Of a DNA stretch of 40,812 nucleotides, positions 20,140 to 30,267 are shown piece after piece. The DNA comes from Thermoproteota archaeon (GTDB lineage: Archaea > Asgardarchaeota > Jordiarchaeia > Jordiarchaeales > Freyrarchaeaceae). Made by a program: the position numbers and the translations under genes. The notes below the pieces were generated by a model. That model was given only the letters and a program-made list of their open reading frames with translations. It did no database searches and was not told where the DNA came from. The stretch lies in assembly GCA_029258835.1 (NCBI GenBank), contig JAPDJY010000002.1:1-40812 (forward strand). Direction: 5' to 3'. Numbering within the stretch: the stretch's first letter is position 1; every line of letters starts with the position of its first letter.

Positions 20140-20347
20140 CCCCCTTCGCTATGATTACCTCCGTTGCCTTGAAGACTGCTTCAACCCGGTCACCCCTCCT
20201 TAAATCCAGCTCCCTCGCGGCGTCGCTGGTTATTAGGGCCACTATCTCCCCTGGCTTGTCAACCTTAACCCAAATCCTTGACACTGCCCCGTCCCGCTCA
20301 ATCCTAACTATTCTGCCTTTAAACTGGTTTCTAGCGCTGAGCCTCAC
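20123..20347 (-). CDS. mop: Molybdate/tungstate-binding TOBE protein (Mop/molbindin)
   Basis: MRLSARNQFKGRIV...ALIT...LDLRRGDRVEAVFKATEV. Confidence 0.9.
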   Translation of the reverse strand: MRLSARNQFKGRIVRIERDGAVSRIWVKVDKPGEIVALITSDAARELDLRRGDRVEAVFKATEVIIAKGGGDGG

Positions 20348-20943
20348 AGTTTCTCCTCCTTGCTCACCATGACCTCGGTTGCCTTGACGATTACGGTCAC
20401 CTTATCCCCAACCTTGAGGTTTAAGTCCTCCACAGACCTTGAAGATATGACGGACACCAGCTTAAATGACTGGTTAACCCCTACGCTGACCATGGCGGCG
20501 GGACCATCCACCTCAACGCTTTTAACCCATCCAGGGACGACGTTCCTGTCAGGGATGGAGAGACCGCAAGCCTCCCACATCTCAGGGTTGCTGAGGGCAT
20601 TATTGAGGAAGCGCTCGAAGCGGGAGTACTTGGAGAGGAGCAGCCTCCCGGTCTGCGTTAAAACGGTTTTACCCTTTTCCTTTCCACCCCTCACCGACTC
20701 TACAACCTTTTCCCCCAGCCTATCCTCGATCTTCCTTAGGTAGTTCCAAGCGTACTTATATGAAATCCCAAGCTTCTCGGCAGCCCTCCTAATGCTCCCC
20801 TCAACCAGAACGTTTCTGAGTATGGCAGCCCCGCCCTTACCTATCAAGTTCTTGCCGTCAGCCTCAAGCCAAACCTTAACCCTAGGGTTAACCTTCAAAA
20901 GCGGAAACCTCCAACCAAAACGTAACAGCAACCTTCTTTTCAA
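20344..20943 (-). CDS. modE: ModE-type molybdenum-responsive regulator (wHTH + TOBE)
   Basis: KVWLE..G...GSIRRAAEKLGISYKYAWNYL, RGGKEKG, C-terminal TOBE ...KVGDKVTVIVKATEV. Confidence 0.88.
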   Translation of the reverse strand: MKRRLLLRFGWRFPLLKVNPRVKVWLEADGKNLIGKGGAAILRNVLVEGSIRRAAEKLGISYKYAWNYLRKIEDRLGEKVVESVRGGKEKGKTVLTQTGRLLLSKYSRFERFLNNALSNPEMWEACGLSIPDRNVVPGWVKSVEVDGPAAMVSVGVNQSFKLVSVISSRSVEDLNLKVGDKVTVIVKATEVMVSKEEKL

Positions 20944-22397: not shown

Positions 22398-22937
22398 CTA
22401 CCTTCCACCATACTCCTCCCAGTGAAGCATTTCCTCCAGCGGCTTGCGGCGGGGAGGCTTCGGGGCCTCCAGCGGGTAGCCCAGCGCGATTATCGCGAAG
22501 GGGTCTATGTTCCTTGGAAGGTTAAGCATCTCCCTGACCCTGTTTTTGTCGAAGACCGAATCCCAGCAGGTGCCCAGACCAAGCGCGTAGGCGGCAAGCA
22601 TCATGTTCTGCACCGCCACGGCGGCGTCTAGAGGGGCAAAATACTTCACCCCAAGCTCGCCGTAGCGGGAGCCGGCCCTATCCAAGTTCACGCACACAAC
22701 CAATGCTACGGGGGCATCCTTAAGGTAGGCGGCGTACCCTGAGATTTCAGCCATAACGTGCCTTTTCTCCGGATCCGTTACGACGACCACTTCGACGGGC
22801 TGTGTGTTACCGGACGAGGGAGCCCACCTCCCAGCGTCAACCACCTTCTCGATCAACTCCCTGTCAACAGGCTTCGAATCATACTTCCTCACGCTTCTCC
22901 TCCCTCGAATAGCCTCGAAAACGTCCACTCTAACCAC
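22398..22937 (-). CDS. Nitroreductase family protein
   Basis: RRSVRKY, WAPSSGNTQP, QNMMLAAYALGLGTCW, IIALGYP. Confidence 0.93.
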   Translation of the reverse strand: MVRVDVFEAIRGRRSVRKYDSKPVDRELIEKVVDAGRWAPSSGNTQPVEVVVVTDPEKRHVMAEISGYAAYLKDAPVALVVCVNLDRAGSRYGELGVKYFAPLDAAVAVQNMMLAAYALGLGTCWDSVFDKNRVREMLNLPRNIDPFAIIALGYPLEAPKPPRRKPLEEMLHWEEYGGR

Positions 22938-23084
22938 CAGCCAAGCGGAAAGGCTACTCTTAACTATCCACAGAGGAGAGCATCCGTCTTAAAGAGCTTT
23001 CCCAGCAGCGCCATCTAGCCGGGCCGAGGCGTGTAGCAGAGGAATTTTAAAAAGGTGAAAGGAGGGGTTTAACACCGGGTAACG

Positions 23085-23114
23085 CTAAATAAAAATGGTC
23101 TAAATAAAAATGGT
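23085..23114 (-). repeat. 15-bp tandem duplication; T-rich on the minus strand, candidate terminator of the fdh operon
   Basis: ctaaataaaaatggt x2, ending 15 bp from the fdhB stop. Confidence 0.55.
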
Positions 23115-23128
23115 GTTTATGGTGGATG

Positions 23129-24376
23129 CTACCGGCGCTTTGCGGGTTGCCCACGCAGCTCCGTGAAGAAGAGTAAGGGGTCCTCCATTCTCGCTTCCTC
23201 GTCGCTTACGAAGGCTAGTGGCGGCGGTTCGTCGACGCTCATTCCGGGAACATAGTTGAACATCTCGCTAAGCTCTTTGTTGATCATGTGGCACAGCTTG
23301 GCGATGGGGATTTCAGCCATGCACACGTCCTGGCACTGACCGCAGTTCACGCACGAGTCGGCAACGTGGACTATTCTTAGAAGTGAGAACATCCTCTCAG
23401 GCGGGAGGCCGCCCACCTTCACGATCCCCCTCTCGGGTTCAAGGCGGCAGTCGGTGCAGTAGCATATTGGGCAAACATCCCTGCATGCAAAGCACTTAAC
23501 GCACCTCTCAAACTCTCCTAGCCAGTAGCGTAGCCTCTCGGCGGGCTTCATCTCCCTGAGCTCGCCGAAGTCTCTTTTCTGCCACGCCTCTGCAAGCCTC
23601 AAATAGTATTCCTCACTTCTCGCCCTTTCAGAAATATTGCTTTCTCCCGCTGGTTCAACACGTACGAATCCTGCCCGGGAGGCCTCCTCCAGCAGCAGAG
23701 CACCCTTCTCGGAGCAGACCTCCACGAAGGACGCCTTACCGTCCGAGACCCCCCACTTTCCGACGGCTAAGTCGGCCATTCTCGGAATCTTAACCTCGCA
23801 CCTCCTGCAGTTTTCCCTCCTGCCAAGCCCCTCTTCCTCAAGCTTTTCCAAGTCCTCTTCCACGGTTTTCCCGTTAGAAAGGAACAATACAAGCTTGCCA
23901 TCCTCGATCTCCTCGGCCACCACGTCCTCAGGCTTAACCCCCATCCTATCAAGCATCACCCTGAAGGTTTGCGGGGAGAACGTCCCTGAGCAGTTAACCC
24001 CTATCATCAAAAGGTTTTCACGATTCACCTGCTCCCTCTTAGCAAGCTCAACTATGGCCCTCGCGTCGCATGGCTTGACGACGACGGCCAGCTTGAAGCC
24101 GAAAGCCCCGTCAAGGTAGTTCTTTACGAACTTAGCTATGTTAGGCGTTACACAGTGGAGGGCTCCTGGAGGGCGCCTGATGGAGTCAGCATCCCTCACC
24201 AGGGAGAGGACTCCGCCAAGCCGGCTTCCATCCCTCCTATCCACAAAGAGGACTGCGTCAACCATCTTACTCTTCAAGGCAAACTTTAGAAGCGACGTAA
24301 TGACGCCGCCGTGCTCGCTTGCCTCAAGCACGTCCTCGTCTCCAGACCATGCAATGTAGCATTCCCCAACGTTCAC
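23129..24376 (-). CDS. fdhB: Formate dehydrogenase beta subunit (FrhB/FdhB family, F420-binding fold plus 4Fe-4S clusters)
   Basis: GGVITSLL, KPCDARAIVELAKR.Q, IGVNCSGT, RRENCRRC, CVKCFACRDVCPICYC, SCVNCGQCQDVC. Confidence 0.9.
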   Translation of the reverse strand: MNVGECYIAWSGDEDVLEASEHGGVITSLLKFALKSKMVDAVLFVDRRDGSRLGGVLSLVRDADSIRRPPGALHCVTPNIAKFVKNYLDGAFGFKLAVVVKPCDARAIVELAKREQVNRENLLMIGVNCSGTFSPQTFRVMLDRMGVKPEDVVAEEIEDGKLVLFLSNGKTVEEDLEKLEEEGLGRRENCRRCEVKIPRMADLAVGKWGVSDGKASFVEVCSEKGALLLEEASRAGFVRVEPAGESNISERARSEEYYLRLAEAWQKRDFGELREMKPAERLRYWLGEFERCVKCFACRDVCPICYCTDCRLEPERGIVKVGGLPPERMFSLLRIVHVADSCVNCGQCQDVCMAEIPIAKLCHMINKELSEMFNYVPGMSVDEPPPLAFVSDEEARMEDPLLFFTELRGQPAKRR

Positions 24377-26433
24377 TTATCTCCCTCCTTCTCTATTTTA
24401 ACGGCGCAGAGCTTAAATTCAGGCATTTTCGCGCCGGGGGCAAGCGCAGGGTTTGTAAGGAGGTTTGCAGCGCACTCGGAGAAGTGGAAGGGCATGAAAA
24501 GAAGTCCTTCTGGAACCTCATCTGAAACCCTTGCTTCCACCATGACCCTTCCACGCCTCGAAACAAGGTAAACCTTGTCTCCGTTCCTCACCCTGTACCT
24601 TCTGGCGTCGCCTTCACTTATCGCAACGTAACCCGTCGGGATCTCGCCGTTAAGCCTACGAGTCCTCCTAGTCATTGTCCCGGTGTGATAATGAAAGATC
24701 ACTCTTCCAGTCGTCAGCATGAGGGGGTAATCGCCGTCTGGAAGCTCTGCGGGAGGTTTGTACTCGACAACCTTGAAGTGTCCTAGTCCGTCAGGCGTCC
24801 CAAACCTCTCAACAAACATCGTCGGGGTTCCAGGGTGATCCTCCGAGGGGCACGGCCACTGAATGCCCTGAGGCGACTTCTCCAGCCGCTCATAGGTTAT
24901 CCCCCTATACTGCGGGACGCACCGGCGGATCTCGTCGAAGATGTCCCGTGAAGAGCCGTAGTTAAAGTATTTACCGTATCCCATCCTCTCCGCTATCTTA
25001 CATATTATCTGCCAGTCTGGCATTGCCTCCCCTGGAGGGTCTACCGCCTTCCTCACCAGCTGCACCCGCCTGTCGGTCCAGGCGTGGACGCCTGTTTTCT
25101 CAGCCCATGCAGCTGCGGGTAAAACCACGTCCGCCAGCTTGGCTGTCTCGGTCATCAGGATGTCTTGGACGACGACGAAGTCCTTCTCCTCGAGCATCCT
25201 CCTCACGTTGTTGATGTCTGGCGCTGAAACCATGATGTTGAAGCCTACAATGTATAGTTGCTTGCACGTTTCCAGCATTTCCATGGTGGTTTTCCCCGGC
25301 TTCTCTGGTAGCTCGTCGACACCCCACGCCTCCTTAAAGAACTTGAACGTTTCCTCTTCGAGCCTTTTAAATCCGGGGTAGAAGACGGGTAGGCATCCCA
25401 TGTCGCCTGTCCCCTCGCCCGTTATCTGCCCCCTCATGGGGTTCACCCCGCAGCCTGGCTTCCCTACTTGACCTGTGAGCATGGCTAGGTCTGCTAAGGC
25501 GGATATCTTGTCGACGCCCGTCGTGTACTCTGTTATGCCTTCATCGTAGAGGATGCTGGCGTCCTCGGCTTGAGCGTACGTTAAGGCAGCCTCCCTTATC
25601 TTTTCTAGAGGAACCCTCGTGACCTTCTCGACCTCTTCGAGGTCTAGCTTTAGCAGGTGCTCTCTTAGCTCCTCAAAACCGACGGTTCTTTCCTCTATGA
25701 ACTTTCTGTTTTCGAGTCCCTCGTCGAGTATGATCCTCATCATCCCGTTCACCAGCGCCACGTCAGTCCCCGGAGCAAGTTGAAGGTGTATGTCAGCGTA
25801 AAGTTTCGCTGTGAGGGTTCTCCTCGGATCTATAACTATGACCTTCGCACCACGCTTCTTTGCACGCCTCACACGCCTAGCGATTGCAGGGAACGTTTCG
25901 TGAATGTTTACTCCAGCTATTATGAAGCAGTCGGGGAGCTCGTAGTCCAGCACTGAAGCCTCCATCACGCCTGACCCGACCGTCGGCCCCAGCCCTCCAA
26001 CCGTTGTAGAATGGCAGAAGCGTGCACAGTAGTCTATGTTGTTCGTCTTCATCACGATCCTTGCAAACTTCTGCAGGACGTATCCTTCCTCGTTGGTCGT
26101 CTTACCTGAAGCTAGGACTCCGAACTCGTCAGGGGACGCCTTCCCGAACTCCTCTGCGACCCTTCCTATGGCTTCATCCCATGAAGCCTCCACCAGTTCT
26201 CCGTTACGCCTTACGAGAGGCTTTCTAAGCCTATCCTTAGCGTAGAGGAACTCGTAGGCGTTCCTCCCCTTCGGGCAAAGCTTCCCCTCGCTTACGGGAT
26301 GCTCCTTCCACGGCTCAACGCCGACTATGCGGCCACCTTTCACTATGAGGTACAAGCCGCACCCGCAGCCACAGTAAGGGCATATCGTGGGAACCCACTT
26401 GATGTCTTCCAGCTGTTCAAGCGTTGAACTCAA
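24373..26433 (-). CDS. fdhA: Formate dehydrogenase alpha subunit (Mo/W-bisPGD, Cys ligand)
   Basis: CPYCGCGC...LCPKG, NNIDYCARFCHS, PMRGQ, ADVVLPAAAWAEK, LTTGRVIFHYHTGTMTRR, PEFKLCAV. Confidence 0.9.
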   Translation of the reverse strand: MSSTLEQLEDIKWVPTICPYCGCGCGLYLIVKGGRIVGVEPWKEHPVSEGKLCPKGRNAYEFLYAKDRLRKPLVRRNGELVEASWDEAIGRVAEEFGKASPDEFGVLASGKTTNEEGYVLQKFARIVMKTNNIDYCARFCHSTTVGGLGPTVGSGVMEASVLDYELPDCFIIAGVNIHETFPAIARRVRRAKKRGAKVIVIDPRRTLTAKLYADIHLQLAPGTDVALVNGMMRIILDEGLENRKFIEERTVGFEELREHLLKLDLEEVEKVTRVPLEKIREAALTYAQAEDASILYDEGITEYTTGVDKISALADLAMLTGQVGKPGCGVNPMRGQITGEGTGDMGCLPVFYPGFKRLEEETFKFFKEAWGVDELPEKPGKTTMEMLETCKQLYIVGFNIMVSAPDINNVRRMLEEKDFVVVQDILMTETAKLADVVLPAAAWAEKTGVHAWTDRRVQLVRKAVDPPGEAMPDWQIICKIAERMGYGKYFNYGSSRDIFDEIRRCVPQYRGITYERLEKSPQGIQWPCPSEDHPGTPTMFVERFGTPDGLGHFKVVEYKPPAELPDGDYPLMLTTGRVIFHYHTGTMTRRTRRLNGEIPTGYVAISEGDARRYRVRNGDKVYLVSRRGRVMVEARVSDEVPEGLLFMPFHFSECAANLLTNPALAPGAKMPEFKLCAVKIEKEGDK

Positions 26434-26437
26434 CGTT

Positions 26438-26848
26438 TCACTCCCCTCTCAGAGGGCTTGGACCCAGGCTCTTTACTTCGTCGACGAACTCCTTCACGAC
26501 CCTAGCGAACTTCTCCCCTTCGGAAGCCGAGATCCACTCTAAACGTAGACGCTCCGGCTCCAAGCCCAAGACCTCCAGAACCTTCTTCAGCATGGACACC
26601 CTACGCCTTGCGAACAGGTTTCCCCTAATGTAATGGCAGTCCCCCGGATGGCAACCGCCGACGAGCACCCCGTCGGCCCCGCTGAGGAACGCCTTCAAAA
26701 CGAACACCGGGTCAAGGCGTCCAGTGCACATTAGCCTTATAATGCGAATGTTTGGCGGGTAGCTTATGCGGGAGACCCCTGCGAGGTCTGCCCCAGCGTA
26801 GGTGCACCAGTTACAGGTGAAGGCGACTATCTTCGGCTCGAAGCTCAT
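26438..26848 (-). CDS. mvhD: MvhD/FlpD 2Fe-2S subunit
   Basis: FEPKIVAFTCNWCTYAGADLAG, RLMCTGR, GADGVLVGGCHPGDCHY, RLRLEWISASEG. Confidence 0.95.
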   Translation of the reverse strand: MSFEPKIVAFTCNWCTYAGADLAGVSRISYPPNIRIIRLMCTGRLDPVFVLKAFLSGADGVLVGGCHPGDCHYIRGNLFARRRVSMLKKVLEVLGLEPERLRLEWISASEGEKFARVVKEFVDEVKSLGPSPLRGE

Positions 26849-26857
26849 CCTTCCACC

Positions 26858-28861
26858 TCACCTATCATGGTCGGCGGGGCAGTTGTCTAGGCTCCAGTAG
26901 ATTACCGGAACGTCAGCTATGGTGACTCCTTCCAAGAGCCTCGGGAGGAACGTAAGTATCGTGTCAAACGACGGGCCTTTGATGTGCACCCTGTAGGGGT
27001 TCTTTGAGCCGTCACTCACCATGTGGAAGCATAGTTCTCCACGTGCACTCTCAACGCAGTGTATGGCTTCCCCCTCGGGGACGGCTGAGAAGAACTTCAA
27101 GACCTTGCCATTCTTCATTTTCCCATCACGCACCTCTCCTTCCGGAAGCCTCTCCAAGACTTGCTCCACGATGCCGAGGCTTTCCTCGATCTCTCTCCTC
27201 CTGCACAGCATCCTATGGTACGCGTCTCCCTCCTGGGCTGTGGGGACTTCAAATTCCAAGTCTGGGTACGCGTCGTATGGGGAATTCTTCCTCACGTCAA
27301 AGTCTACGCCGCACGCCCTCATGTTCGGCCCAACCAGGTCGTATTCAGCGGCATCATCCTTAGAGAACACGCCTACCCCTTTAGTCCTCTTGATGAAGAC
27401 GCCGTTGTTGAAGAACAGGTCGTCGTAGAGCTTCAGCCTTTTCCTCATTTCCTTAACGGTTTTCCTCGCCAGCTCTATAACGCTTGGCTTCACGTCACCT
27501 CTAACCCCGCCGGGAACGGTGAATATTGAGTATATTCTGGCTCCGGTCATCCTTTCTAGGAGGGCTAGGATTCTCTCCCTGTCACCCCATGCTATCCTTG
27601 CCCCCGCGTCTAGCCCGGCCGCGTTAGTTATTAAGCCGAGGTTGAGTAGGTGGCTCTGTATCCTGCTCAGCTCGGCCTGTATTACGCGCAGGTAACGCGC
27701 CCTTTTCGGAGGGTGAATCCCTGCCACCGCTTCGACGGCTCCGGCGTATGCGAGCTCCAGGCTGGCGCCGTCAAGCACGCATATGCGTGAGACAAGCATT
27801 ATGTTTTGAAGCCACGTCCTGTACTCCATCAGCTTTTCGAATCCCCTGTGCAGGTAGCCTGCGTACGGCACCGCCTCCCTAACCACTTCGCCGTCCGTTT
27901 TAAGTCCTAGGTGGAAGTTTCCTGAGGCTGGATGCTGCGGCCCGAATGGGATGACAACTTCCCCCTCCTCCTCGCACTCGATCTTTACTATTTCAGGAAC
28001 CCTCGGACCCTTCGACCTCTCCTCCTTCCCCCTGTAGCCGTTCTGGATGGCGTATATTGCATGGACGACGGCGACGCCTATTGGCTCCGGCCTAGGCGGG
28101 CAGCCGGCGATCCAGATGTCTACCGGTATGTAGTCGTCGAGGTGTTTTATCGTATTGTAGCTGTCCCAGTAGCACCCTCCGCTCATAGGGCAGTTCCCGA
28201 ACGCCAGCACCCACTTCGGAGGGGGCATCTGATTGTATATCCTTATTATCCTTTTCAGGGTCTTTGGGGTTACGAAGCCTCCTACGATGATGGCGTCCGC
28301 GTGCCTCGCCGACCCCACGGCTATTAAGCCGAACCTTTCCATGTCGAAGCCGCTGCTAACCCATGGTATGGCTTCTATGAAGCCGCATCCCGTGAAGAAG
28401 TTTATGACCCATATGCTCCTGGACCTAGCCCAATCCACGATCTTCCTGATCTTAGGCTTCTCTGGGTGTTCGAGCTCCGGGGGTTGAGCCAGCTTTTCAG
28501 GGGGGTAAACCAGGCTGTTTCTGTCCATTGTGAGGATGAACGGGAACTTGGTGAATTGAAGGGAGCCTGTCGGGCAAGCGTCAACGCAGAGGCCGCAGAA
28601 GCAGCACTTCTGGTAATCCACTTGTGGTTGAAGGACCTTCTCCCCGTTCCTCTCCCTTTCAACCATTTCTATCGCGTTGTTAGGGCACACCCTAGCGCAA
28701 AGGCTGCACCCCTTGCATGTTTCCGGGTTAAACAGGTGTCTTCCTCTGAACTCGTCGGAGAGGGGTGTCTCCGGGGGGAAATTGTACGTCATGGGCTTAC
28801 TTGCGAGGAGATTTATGATGGCTTTCAGAGGATTTACTACCCCTTTCACGCCTTCAAGCAT
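26858..28861 (-). CDS. Triple fusion NuoI-NuoB-NuoD (MbsN/MbsJ/MbsL-like; complex I / group 4 hydrogenase superfamily, lacking a full Ni-ligand set)
   Basis: Two CxxCxxCxxxCP motifs; NuoB-like TGCGFIE, GNCPMSGG, AGCPPRPE; NuoD-like FGPQHPA, GYLHRGFEKLME, SRICVLD, ELSRIQSHL, ESARGE, C-terminal DNCPADHDR. Confidence 0.9.
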   Translation of the reverse strand: MLEGVKGVVNPLKAIINLLASKPMTYNFPPETPLSDEFRGRHLFNPETCKGCSLCARVCPNNAIEMVERERNGEKVLQPQVDYQKCCFCGLCVDACPTGSLQFTKFPFILTMDRNSLVYPPEKLAQPPELEHPEKPKIRKIVDWARSRSIWVINFFTGCGFIEAIPWVSSGFDMERFGLIAVGSARHADAIIVGGFVTPKTLKRIIRIYNQMPPPKWVLAFGNCPMSGGCYWDSYNTIKHLDDYIPVDIWIAGCPPRPEPIGVAVVHAIYAIQNGYRGKEERSKGPRVPEIVKIECEEEGEVVIPFGPQHPASGNFHLGLKTDGEVVREAVPYAGYLHRGFEKLMEYRTWLQNIMLVSRICVLDGASLELAYAGAVEAVAGIHPPKRARYLRVIQAELSRIQSHLLNLGLITNAAGLDAGARIAWGDRERILALLERMTGARIYSIFTVPGGVRGDVKPSVIELARKTVKEMRKRLKLYDDLFFNNGVFIKRTKGVGVFSKDDAAEYDLVGPNMRACGVDFDVRKNSPYDAYPDLEFEVPTAQEGDAYHRMLCRRREIEESLGIVEQVLERLPEGEVRDGKMKNGKVLKFFSAVPEGEAIHCVESARGELCFHMVSDGSKNPYRVHIKGPSFDTILTFLPRLLEGVTIADVPVIYWSLDNCPADHDR

Positions 28862-29357
28862 TTCCTCTCCCTCCCTGCTTAGGCGGCTCTAAACCGTACT
28901 CCTCCTTCACGTACTCTCTCCAGTCAAAGTCCTTTCTGAATGGTGGTGGTCCACTCCAGTCTTCTAGGAAGAGCGGCTTAAGCATCGTGTTACCTTCAAA
29001 CGTTACCCCAAACATCTCCCACGCCTCCCTCTCCCTCATCGCCGCGTTTCTCCAGATCTCCGACAGGCTTGGAATCGATGGCGAGCTCCTTGGCACATCT
29101 GCTGCAACTTTCACGTATCCCTTCCCGTCAGGGCTGCGGAGGACGAAGTATACTTCGAAAGAGTTCTTCTTAAGCCAGTCAACCGCGGACACCATGATCA
29201 ACGTTCTGAAGCCTTGCTCTCTCATGTACCTTGCCACGTCAAGGTACTTCTCCCTCGGAACTTTAACATAGAGCACGTTTCCTTCCCGGCGTGTTTCCGC
29301 CTGAAACTTTCCTTCAAGATTTTTCAAGAAGGAGGTTTTAAAGGGGTTGAACCTCAT
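28854..29357 (-). CDS. NuoC/MbsK-like subunit
   Basis: VSAVDW, FEVYF, IPSLSEIW.NA..REREAWEMFGVTFEGN..L..LFLEDW...PPFRKDF. Confidence 0.92.
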   Translation of the reverse strand: MRFNPFKTSFLKNLEGKFQAETRREGNVLYVKVPREKYLDVARYMREQGFRTLIMVSAVDWLKKNSFEVYFVLRSPDGKGYVKVAADVPRSSPSIPSLSEIWRNAAMREREAWEMFGVTFEGNTMLKPLFLEDWSGPPPFRKDFDWREYVKEEYGLEPPKQGGRGNA

Positions 29358-29601
29358 TTTCGACGCCTCCCGCCTTCAATTTTGCACGGAGAATTTTGTG
29401 CAGATTCACAAAAATAGCGAAGTCCAATATTAGTTTAACGTTTCTAAAACAACTTATAAATTTAAATAAAACATGGTAAACAGGAAAGCAGCCAAAAACC
29501 CCTTTAAATTTATCAGAGCACTAGTGCCCACACAACCGTTGAAACGGGAAAAAGGAGGGAAATGCTTTTTAGTTTCAGCTTAGGTACGCTATTCCCCTGC
29601 T

Positions 29602-30267
29602 TTAACCCTTCACCTTCAATATGGCTTGAGCGCCTACTAGTAGGATCCAGGTTGAGACTGTGAAAAAGGTAAGCCACTCCATTACTGTTAAGTGGCTGAT
29701 TAAGAAGAGTAGGTCCAATACTGCGTAAAGGAATCCATATATTGCAGTAGCCTTCGAGAAAAATGCATCCTTGTATATTACCACGCTTAGGAGGAGAATG
29801 GCGAGACCTCTGGAAAGGAAGACGAGGAAGCCGAGAAGCGTGTGCAGTAGGCATACGACCATGGGGCATAGTCCAATGCCTATCTCGAAAAAGAAGCATG
29901 CTACGAACAGGGCGACTCCAACTTTCCCAGTAAGGTTAATGGAGGACGAGGCACTCCTGAAGAGAGTTGAAAGCAACGGGAAAGCTGGAATAGCTATGAT
30001 GGAGGCTAAAGCTACGCCTACGTTGAAGATGAGGGAGCTGGGGCCTATCCCGAGCTCACTTATGTACATGTACCAGATGGAGAAGCCGGTGTTAGCCACT
30101 GGTAGCAGAGAGAATGGTTTAGGAAGCCAGTGAACGTACAGCGGTCTAAAGGGAAAGGAAGCGTACATGGCTAAGGCGCCTAGCACGCTGCCAATCCAGA
30201 TAAGCGAAGATGAAACCAGAAGTAAACCCCCAGCTTTAACTCTCAACTCGTCCACATCAGACCTCAC
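29602..30267 (-). CDS. DUF998-like membrane protein
   Basis: YISELG...SLIFN, IGIGLCP...LH motifs; multi-TM. Confidence 0.7.
   Translation of the reverse strand: MRSDVDELRVKAGGLLLVSSSLIWIGSVLGALAMYASFPFRPLYVHWLPKPFSLLPVANTGFSIWYMYISELGIGPSSLIFNVGVALASIIAIPAFPLLSTLFRSASSSINLTGKVGVALFVACFFFEIGIGLCPMVVCLLHTLLGFLVFLSRGLAILLLSVVIYKDAFFSKATAIYGFLYAVLDLLFLISHLTVMEWLTFFTVSTWILLVGAQAILKVKG

Follow-up and report, generated by a model that had tools for sequence, protein, structure and literature searches.

An MBS-type complex-I-like head encoded with a formate dehydrogenase module in an Asgard archaeon: a possible soluble formate-linked reductase

Introduction

Complex-I-like enzymes are thought to originate from a soluble redox module that was joined to an Mrp-type antiporter. 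What does such a module do when its genes stand without a membrane arm, next to those of a formate dehydrogenase? This question is raised by a five-gene operon in a 40,812-nucleotide (nt) stretch of Asgard archaeal DNA (contig JAPDJY010000002.1). This stretch is the window in the following; it is contig C21 of assembly G000, which has 2.72 Mb and is 94.7% complete. The operon encodes a peripheral arm, or head, of the type found in the sulfane sulfur reductase MBS (membrane-bound sulfane reductase, formerly MBX) of Pyrococcus furiosus, together with the FdhAB-MvhD formate dehydrogenase module of methanogens.

We tentatively favor a complex in the cytoplasm, with FdhAB-MvhD wired to the MBS-type head at its NuoI-domain end. 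A wider proposal, which we consider possible but doubtful, is that in Asgard archaea this head has been freed from the ion pump and works as a soluble five-subunit enzyme that uses electrons of formate or of reduced coenzyme F420 (F420H2), supplied through FdhAB-MvhD, to reduce sulfane sulfur, or some other small oxidant, on a [4Fe-4S] cluster with open coordination, or else that such heads are interchangeable plug-ins sharing one resident pump. Formate and H2 exchange is central to syntrophy models of Asgard physiology and eukaryogenesis, and the operon holds the only FdhA detected in the genome when searched with the window FdhA as query. The routing of formate electrons, be it to a sulfur-type acceptor, to ferredoxin or to a pump, therefore bears directly on these models.

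Results

A Five-Gene Operon Without Membrane Subunits

Five co-oriented open reading frames (ORFs) and their flanking signals make up the locus as follows; the domains of the fused protein are listed under its gene.

29380..29510, minus strand: AT-rich upstream region with TATA-like runs and a purine-rich ribosome-binding stretch just before the nuoC ATG, read from the sequence
28854..29357, minus strand: nuoC/mbsK-like gene, 167 amino acids, first gene of the two-gene head cassette (PF00329, Complex1_30kDa, 104 bits)
26858..28861, minus strand: NuoI-NuoB-NuoD (MbsN-J-L-like) triple fusion, 667 amino acids (two Fer4, Oxidored_q6 and Complex1_49kDa)
28490..28846, minus strand: NuoI/MbsN-like domain, residues about 6-124, with two four-Cys motifs for two [4Fe-4S] clusters (Fer4 families, TIGR01971)
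28037..28453, minus strand: NuoB/MbsJ-like domain, residues about 137-275, with a three-Cys (C159, C224, C254) proximal [4Fe-4S] cluster (alignment to MbsJ)
26861..27970, minus strand: NuoD/MbsL-like domain, residues about 298-667 (alignments to MbsL and Nqo4)
26438..26848, minus strand: mvhD, 136 amino acids, [2Fe-2S] adaptor (PF02662, FlpD/MvhD, 193 bits; best match in the PDB MvhD of 5ODC; conserved Cys)
24373..26433, minus strand: fdhA, catalytic formate dehydrogenase subunit with a molybdenum or tungsten (Mo/W) bis-pyranopterin guanine dinucleotide center, 686 amino acids, Cys type (TIGR01591, 796 bits vs. a cut-off of 666)
23129..24376, minus strand: fdhB, FrhB-family flavin/Fe-S subunit with a C-terminal Fe-S domain, 415 amino acids (PF04422, PF04432 and Fer4_8; best PDB match 7BKB_E, 357 bits)
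23081..23125, minus strand: T-rich direct repeat (unit present twice) right after the fdhB stop, likewise read from the sequence, a candidate archaeal terminator

The products, in gene order NuoC/MbsK, the NuoI-B-D fusion, MvhD, FdhA and FdhB, were confirmed in their domain content by Pfam and NCBIfam. A preliminary description of the window had reported the five genes, whose junctions from nuoC to fdhB are an overlap of 8 nt, gaps of 9 and 4 nt and an overlap of 4 nt, and had placed the AT-rich region and the T-rich repeat at the two ends; all of this was recovered. A purine-rich stretch resembling a Shine-Dalgarno sequence stands ahead of each of the five starts, and fdhB begins with a GTG that overlaps the stop of fdhA. 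The five genes are translationally coupled and constitute one operon. No membrane helix was predicted in any of the five proteins, and genes for NuoH, Mrp, HdrABC and MvhAG, earlier noted as missing next to the operon, are absent from the whole window.

Metatranscriptome contigs from one marine-sediment study, short and with a depth of about 2, match pieces of all five genes and of flanking genes. Most are at least 99% identical to the window and two are 95-99% identical; one spans the mvhD/fdhA junction, and DNA carry-over is possible. These contigs are too sparse to show a single transcript, so that co-transcription is neither proved nor refuted by them.

The Head Is MBS-Like and Lacks the Nickel Site

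The type of the head was assigned from bit scores against all PDB sequences and from diagnostic residues. The D domain scored highest with MbsL of MBS (6U8Y, 316 bits), followed by Nqo4 (243), MbhL (182) and HycE (154), and the B domain scored 164 bits with MbsJ and 129 bits with NdhK. NCBIfam models for NuoD, FpoD, NuoC and NuoI mostly gave scores under their cut-offs with the head proteins. In MBS the proximal cluster is coordinated by three Cys (C28/C93/C123), and the residual-Cys and absent-quinone-ligand features used here as diagnostics are those defined for that enzyme (PMC7684303). As far as sequence can tell, the proximal cluster of the window head is likewise held by three Cys. Beside C159 the window has Gly, like MbsJ, and the equivalent of MbsJ C25 is Phe. 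The corresponding motif reads TGCGF in the window vs. TGCCF in most relatives; among 91 family members compared in a motif table, about 70 have the complex-I-like tandem CC at this cluster and the window belongs to the CG minority.

In the NuoD domain, two of the four NiFe-binding Cys remain, one per former NiFe motif and in each case the first of the CxxC pair (RICVLD..., DNCPADHDR). They are the equivalents of MbsL C85/C385, and the Nqo4 quinone ligands H38/Y87 have no equivalents. When brought into one alignment, the NuoD of a second complex encoded in this genome (on contig C70, see below) had four Cys, the fusion and unfused MbsL-like relatives two, and true complex-I B-D fusions none, yet the latter carried H38 and Y87. 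The window head thus shows neither the four NiFe Cys of group 4 [NiFe]-hydrogenases (RxCGxCxxxH and DPCxxCxxH/R) nor the marks of complex I or of the F420H2 dehydrogenase Fpo, i.e., H38/Y87, a tandem-Cys N2 cluster (CG is found instead of CC) and, within the operon, a NuoAHJKLMN arm (there are no adjacent arm genes). With MbsL and MbsJ of 6U8Y as best solved matches and diagnostic residues in agreement, the site is Mbs-like and nickel-free, as had been supposed.

In the NuoI-like domain, presumed to be the electron entry point of the head, eight Cys are invariant or nearly so (positions given as C49/52/55/59 and C86/87/89/92/96). In relatives, the fusion gene always has the NuoC gene directly upstream. 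A search for longer Rosetta-stone fusions, joining the head to other subunits, found none, by a method that is in itself weak evidence. Prediction of a complex of NuoC and NuoIBD with MvhD as partner gave a score of 0.00, which is informative in neither direction.

Three observations on relatives concern the head itself. The closest relative of the window head (70% identity), which is also linked to a formate dehydrogenase (L117:7292-9307), has lost both residual D-domain Cys (RINVLD..., DNAPADHDR); this loss fits the finding in MBS that these Cys are not needed for catalysis. In an Anaerolineae record (GCA_046497135.1, L122:7434-8458), a solo head cassette is directly followed by genes for a CooC-like (CbiA/ParA) protein and for the nickel chaperone CooT, and these neighbors raise the question of metal binding at the D-domain Cys2/Asp2 site in some lineages. 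A DUF4140/DUF4139 protein is encoded after the cassette in the two closest relatives of the window head (L117:9599-11176 and L120:2979-4562).

The FdhAB-MvhD Module

FdhA found its best PDB matches in 9T1S_L and 7BKB_D, and at its selenocysteine/Cys position it has Cys-His, aligned with the modified residue and His of 9T1S_L. Judged by the FdhA score, this active-site pair and the FrhB-family FdhB, the sequences are those of an F420-type formate dehydrogenase. The presence of two CofE homologues in the genome suggests that the organism can make F420. A formate channel of the FocA/FdhC family was not found in the 94.7% complete genome.

The genome contains seven copies of MvhD and six paralogues of HdrA, each of the latter with a fused or adjacent MvhD. 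The operon MvhD alone is neither fused nor adjacent to HdrA. Elsewhere in the same genome, two MvhD-like frames (C31:11605-11973 and C7:13058-13405) each have two TGA codons in frame, and a TAG lies within an HdrA-MvhD frame on C6. They may be broken genes or may encode Hdr/Mvh components with selenocysteine.

Head and Formate Dehydrogenase Recur Side by Side

The preliminary description had proposed a search for the same five-gene synteny, and the five gene families were indeed found adjacent in other genomes, in three different arrangements. With C for NuoC, IBD for the fusion and D, A and B for MvhD, FdhA and FdhB, these are C-IBD-D-A-B (the window), D-A-B-C-IBD (L005, L098 and L121) and a divergent (D-A-B)<>(C-IBD) in L117. 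The recurrence of five families side by side in three arrangements indicates that the layout is more than chance. Formate dehydrogenase-linked heads fall into two distant clades of the head tree.

In a sample of 400 Asgard genomes, an FdhA at least 55% identical to that of the window was present in 26. Four genomes (G000, G307, G308 and G117) have both this FdhA and the head, and the two modules are adjacent in three of these four. In G117 each module lies at the start of a short contig, which is compatible with the divergent L117 layout without showing it. The genomes of family f20, which carry the head in a different context described below, have a distant type of FdhA (38-48% identity) elsewhere in the genome; at the one locus examined, neither MvhD nor FdhB is adjacent.

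A side observation was made in G117, the nearest sampled genome of the same order: its fusion gene (C205:646-2655, locus L090) has an in-frame TAA and is split into two ORFs of 447 and 215 amino acids. This may reflect a pseudogene, an error in sequencing or a stop codon that is recoded.

No Spare Membrane Arm in This Genome or in Five Others

One NuoH gene (contig C70) and three antiporter-like genes (contig C7) were found in the window genome, and no others genome-wide. They belong to a nuoABCDHI/JKLMN set with its own B/C/D/I genes that is split over two contig ends (C70:1460-5765 and C7:62727-69872). Its NuoD has all four NiFe Cys (RICGICSNCH, DPCFACEDR) and its NuoB a CxxC motif; by these features the resident complex resembles a group 4 [NiFe]-hydrogenase built on the complex-I plan. 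The genome therefore has two heads and one arm, and since the only NuoH arm sits with its own [NiFe]-type head, the window head is left without a dedicated arm.

The same holds for other cassette-bearing genomes. In G307, which is 100% complete and has a formate dehydrogenase-linked head, three NuoH genes each stand beside their own B/C/D/I genes, and every NuoH arm has its own head also in G285, G117, G298 and G006. In these five genomes and in G000, heads thus equal arms plus one, and no orphan membrane arm was found in any of the six. The lack of a dedicated arm, claimed for the operon and its surroundings, accordingly extends to the whole genome and to the five other cassette-bearing genomes named.

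Distribution and Contexts of the Head Cassette

The fused I-B-D family comprises about 70 full-length clusters at 54-70% identity, with source names that include Bathyarchaeota, several Asgard lineages, Hecatellaceae and Anaerolineae. In the Asgard sample the head was present in 23 genomes and in 13 of 85 genera. A scan of genome contigs with the family alignment detected six loci that are true fusions and for the rest mostly ordinary unfused nuo operons, the patterns being too general.

Four contexts were distinguished. The cassette stands alone among unrelated neighbors in Hermod-, Heimdall- and Bathyarchaeia-like genomes (context a). In three f20 genomes, which are 97-98% complete, it closes a nuoA-H-J-K-L-M operon (context b); in L119 it follows an Mrp/MBS-type arm whose last gene is that for NuoH (context c); and it also lies beside MvhD-FdhA-FdhB (context d). 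In all three f20 genomes the fusion is the only NuoD homologue, and in G181, the sole f20 genome searched for NuoH, the single NuoH lies in the operon of the cassette. In the f20 genomes, a membrane complex has the fusion as its working head. In a tree of 91 heads, contexts b and c and two groups of context d fell in separate places, which indicates that the head was recombined with different partners more than once.

In one further locus, from an Anaerolineales metagenome-assembled genome (L019:4937-15099), the cassette lies inside a nuoABCDH...I operon that has a head of its own. After the cassette come a duplicated C-terminal fragment of nuoH and a gene for an H+-pyrophosphatase, an arrangement that looks like an insertion event.

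Discussion

The Proposed Enzyme and Its Rivals

The cytoplasmic, wired complex seems to us the most likely reading because the operon is tight, the adjacency of its two modules recurs despite rearrangement, there is an extra MvhD, and neither a membrane helix nor a spare arm was found. With no membrane helix in any subunit and no spare arm in the genome, such a complex is most likely cytoplasmic or only peripherally attached. We infer its physical association, electron path, direction, acceptor and solubility as follows. Formate would be oxidized at the Mo/W center of FdhA, and the electrons would pass through the Fe-S clusters of FdhA and FdhB, the flavin of the latter also allowing F420H2 to donate. 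From there they would reach the [2Fe-2S] cluster of MvhD and run through the NuoI domain by way of its two [4Fe-4S] clusters, to reduce a small oxidant in the NuoB domain at the proximal [4Fe-4S] cluster with its three Cys. By analogy with MBS, the acceptor would be sulfane sulfur or polysulfide. Ferredoxin docking on the NuoI domain could also drive the reverse reaction, the reduction of CO2 to formate. The preliminary description had offered either a cytoplasmic complex of this kind or an interchangeable head that docks on a membrane arm or HdrA encoded elsewhere. Its Mbs-like, nickel-free head, its synteny and the lack of a dedicated arm next to the operon stand, and the absence of an orphan arm from the genome speaks against a dedicated one elsewhere.

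Several observations weigh against the cytoplasmic complex, and those that touch its solubility may be taken together. The catalytic chamber of MBS requires a NuoH-like subunit (PMC7684303), and the loop and motif residues that line this chamber are equally conserved in arm-less and arm-linked copies of the head. The arm-linked relatives, both of the Nuo type and of the Mrp/MBS type, are 56-60% identical to the window head, and the fact that they are encoded with membrane arms points to a head built to sit on NuoH. Among the cassette-bearing genomes tested, none is without NuoH; each has at least one. The conserved chamber residues, the arm-linked relatives and the constant presence of NuoH would suit a second reading, in which the head with its FdhAB-MvhD input docks in trans on the resident NuoAHJKLMN arm, the only one in the organism, and competes with or replaces the [NiFe]-hydrogenase-type head there. 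In that case ion pumping would be coupled to the oxidation of formate, following the logic of formate hydrogenlyase (FHL) or Fpo but ending in another chemistry. In other lineages the head family does partner NuoH, and over evolution it was combined with two arm types, Nuo and Mrp; in the Anaerolineales locus it stands within a nuo operon that has its own B/C/D. We nevertheless regard docking in trans as unlikely. For every arm examined, a head of its own is already present within the operon, and we know of no case of two heads sharing one arm. The NuoH of the window genome and the NuoH that partners the f20 head are about 45% identical, and this over the C-terminal part only, and the Anaerolineales case, with its duplicated nuoH fragment and H+-pyrophosphatase gene, looks like an insertion.

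Other points against the cytoplasmic complex concern the wiring of its two halves. In all its solved structures FdhAB-MvhD docks on HdrA, of which the genome has six, along with about 23 CCG-domain proteins, so Hdr components are plentiful. Of the 26 genomes with the window type of FdhA, 22 belong to family f31 and are without the head; in the four f31 loci that were fetched, the fdh genes form an operon of their own among unrelated genes, and an adjacent MvhD ORF was detected in three. The operon could then encode two separate, co-regulated enzymes, which we rate as somewhat unlikely: FdhAB-MvhD would dock on an HdrA complex, one of six, or just reduce F420, the head would be an independent ferredoxin-dependent enzyme, and the adjacency would reflect shared regulation or physiology, e.g., the disposal of reducing equivalents. 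Each module does stand alone in many genomes, the trio in f31 and the head in the Hermod-, Heimdall- and Bathyarchaeia-like ones, and the head takes electrons straight from ferredoxin in MBS, in MBH, which is a membrane-bound hydrogenase, as well as in NDH-1 (PMC7684303; passages of bioRxiv 10.1101/2024.07.04.601786). However, the orthologous trio and the head are adjacent in three of the four genomes in which they co-occur, with both at contig ends in the fourth, and this in three arrangements and two head clades; mvhD starts 9 nt past the stop of the fusion gene in the window; and each HdrA already has an MvhD of its own.

Comparison With Known Systems

The nearest relative of the head among solved structures, MBS (6U8Y), has counterparts here for MbsK, N, J and L. 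The two residual MbsL Cys, the absence of quinone ligands and the three-Cys proximal cluster are shared, as known here from sequence. Unlike in MBS, a single polypeptide combines N, J and L, and most members of the fusion family have the complex-I-like tandem CC at the proximal cluster. Furthermore, no Mrp-type arm or MbsM is encoded with the window head and none is spare in the genome, so that the arm of the whole MBS complex is lacking, and the input side would carry FdhAB-MvhD instead of relying on free ferredoxin.

This input module has close relatives in the Hdr super-complexes of methanogens, namely the Fdh-Hdr-Fmd complex of Methanospirillum hungatei (7BKB) and the chains of 9T1S annotated as formate dehydrogenase (coenzyme F420), with 752 bits for FdhA, 357 for FdhB and 178-193 for MvhD. 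The gene trio MvhD-FdhA-FdhB is conserved, but it is encoded here with an MBS-type head and not with HdrABC.

In Fpo of Methanosarcinales, the FrhB-family flavin/Fe-S protein FpoF is the input module on a complex-I-like FpoBCDI head. In the proposed complex, FdhB, of the same family, would take the part of FpoF, with MvhD as adaptor. Similarity to the NCBIfam models of FpoF, FpoC, FpoD and FpoI is weak and far under the model cut-offs, and Fpo differs in having a full membrane arm, separate head subunits and methanophenazine as the substrate that it reduces, and in having neither FdhA nor MvhD.

A formate dehydrogenase is joined to a complex-I-like head likewise in FHL-1 of Escherichia coli (7Z0S) and in Fdh-Mfh-Mnh of Thermococcus. 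FHL, however, has a true [NiFe] large subunit, vs. two of four NiFe Cys in the window, and HycE was the weakest of the compared matches (154 bits); it also uses another formate dehydrogenase (FdhF with HycB/F) and has membrane subunits.

Asgard complex-I-like enzymes without NuoEFG are described as modular, some with Hdr-like peripheral domains, in passages of a study of these archaea (bioRxiv 10.1101/2024.07.04.601786). The resident C70/C7 complex fits the description of group 4 [NiFe]-hydrogenase variants there, from which the window head differs in not being a [NiFe]-hydrogenase; those passages describe neither a head fused as I-B-D nor one without an arm, nor FdhAB-MvhD as a partner. A 'possible energy-transferring complex' of Helarchaeota (PMC6478937) was considered as a match and rejected, being a different cluster of Mvh-like type. 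A match to an already characterized complex, which the preliminary description had named as a possible refutation, was not found in the literature for this architecture. As parts, the MBS head and the FdhAB-MvhD module are known; the literature searched gave no description of the two combined, of the I-B-D fusion or of the missing arm.

An MBS-type head that is widespread and strongly conserved, and that occurs alone, with two kinds of arm or with a formate dehydrogenase module, shows modularity among complex-I-like enzymes to be still in play. If soluble reductases or plug-in heads were true, they would represent a new mode of use for this module family.

Neighboring Genes

Just upstream of the operon promoter region, a 221-amino-acid polytopic membrane protein is encoded (29602-30267, minus strand) that has no Pfam hit and two distant paralogues in the genome. 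It was considered for an anchoring role and rejected as a conserved partner, as none of the fetched loci has a homologue of it near the cassette. On the other side, 191 nt downstream of fdhB and on the same strand, lies a nitroreductase-family gene (22398-22937, minus strand), which is not kept beside other formate dehydrogenase-linked loci. About 2.2 kb downstream of fdhB, a ModE-like regulator with HTH_1 and a molybdate-binding TOBE domain is encoded (20344-20943, minus strand); as a candidate regulator, it may control the Mo/W formate dehydrogenase operon in response to molybdate.

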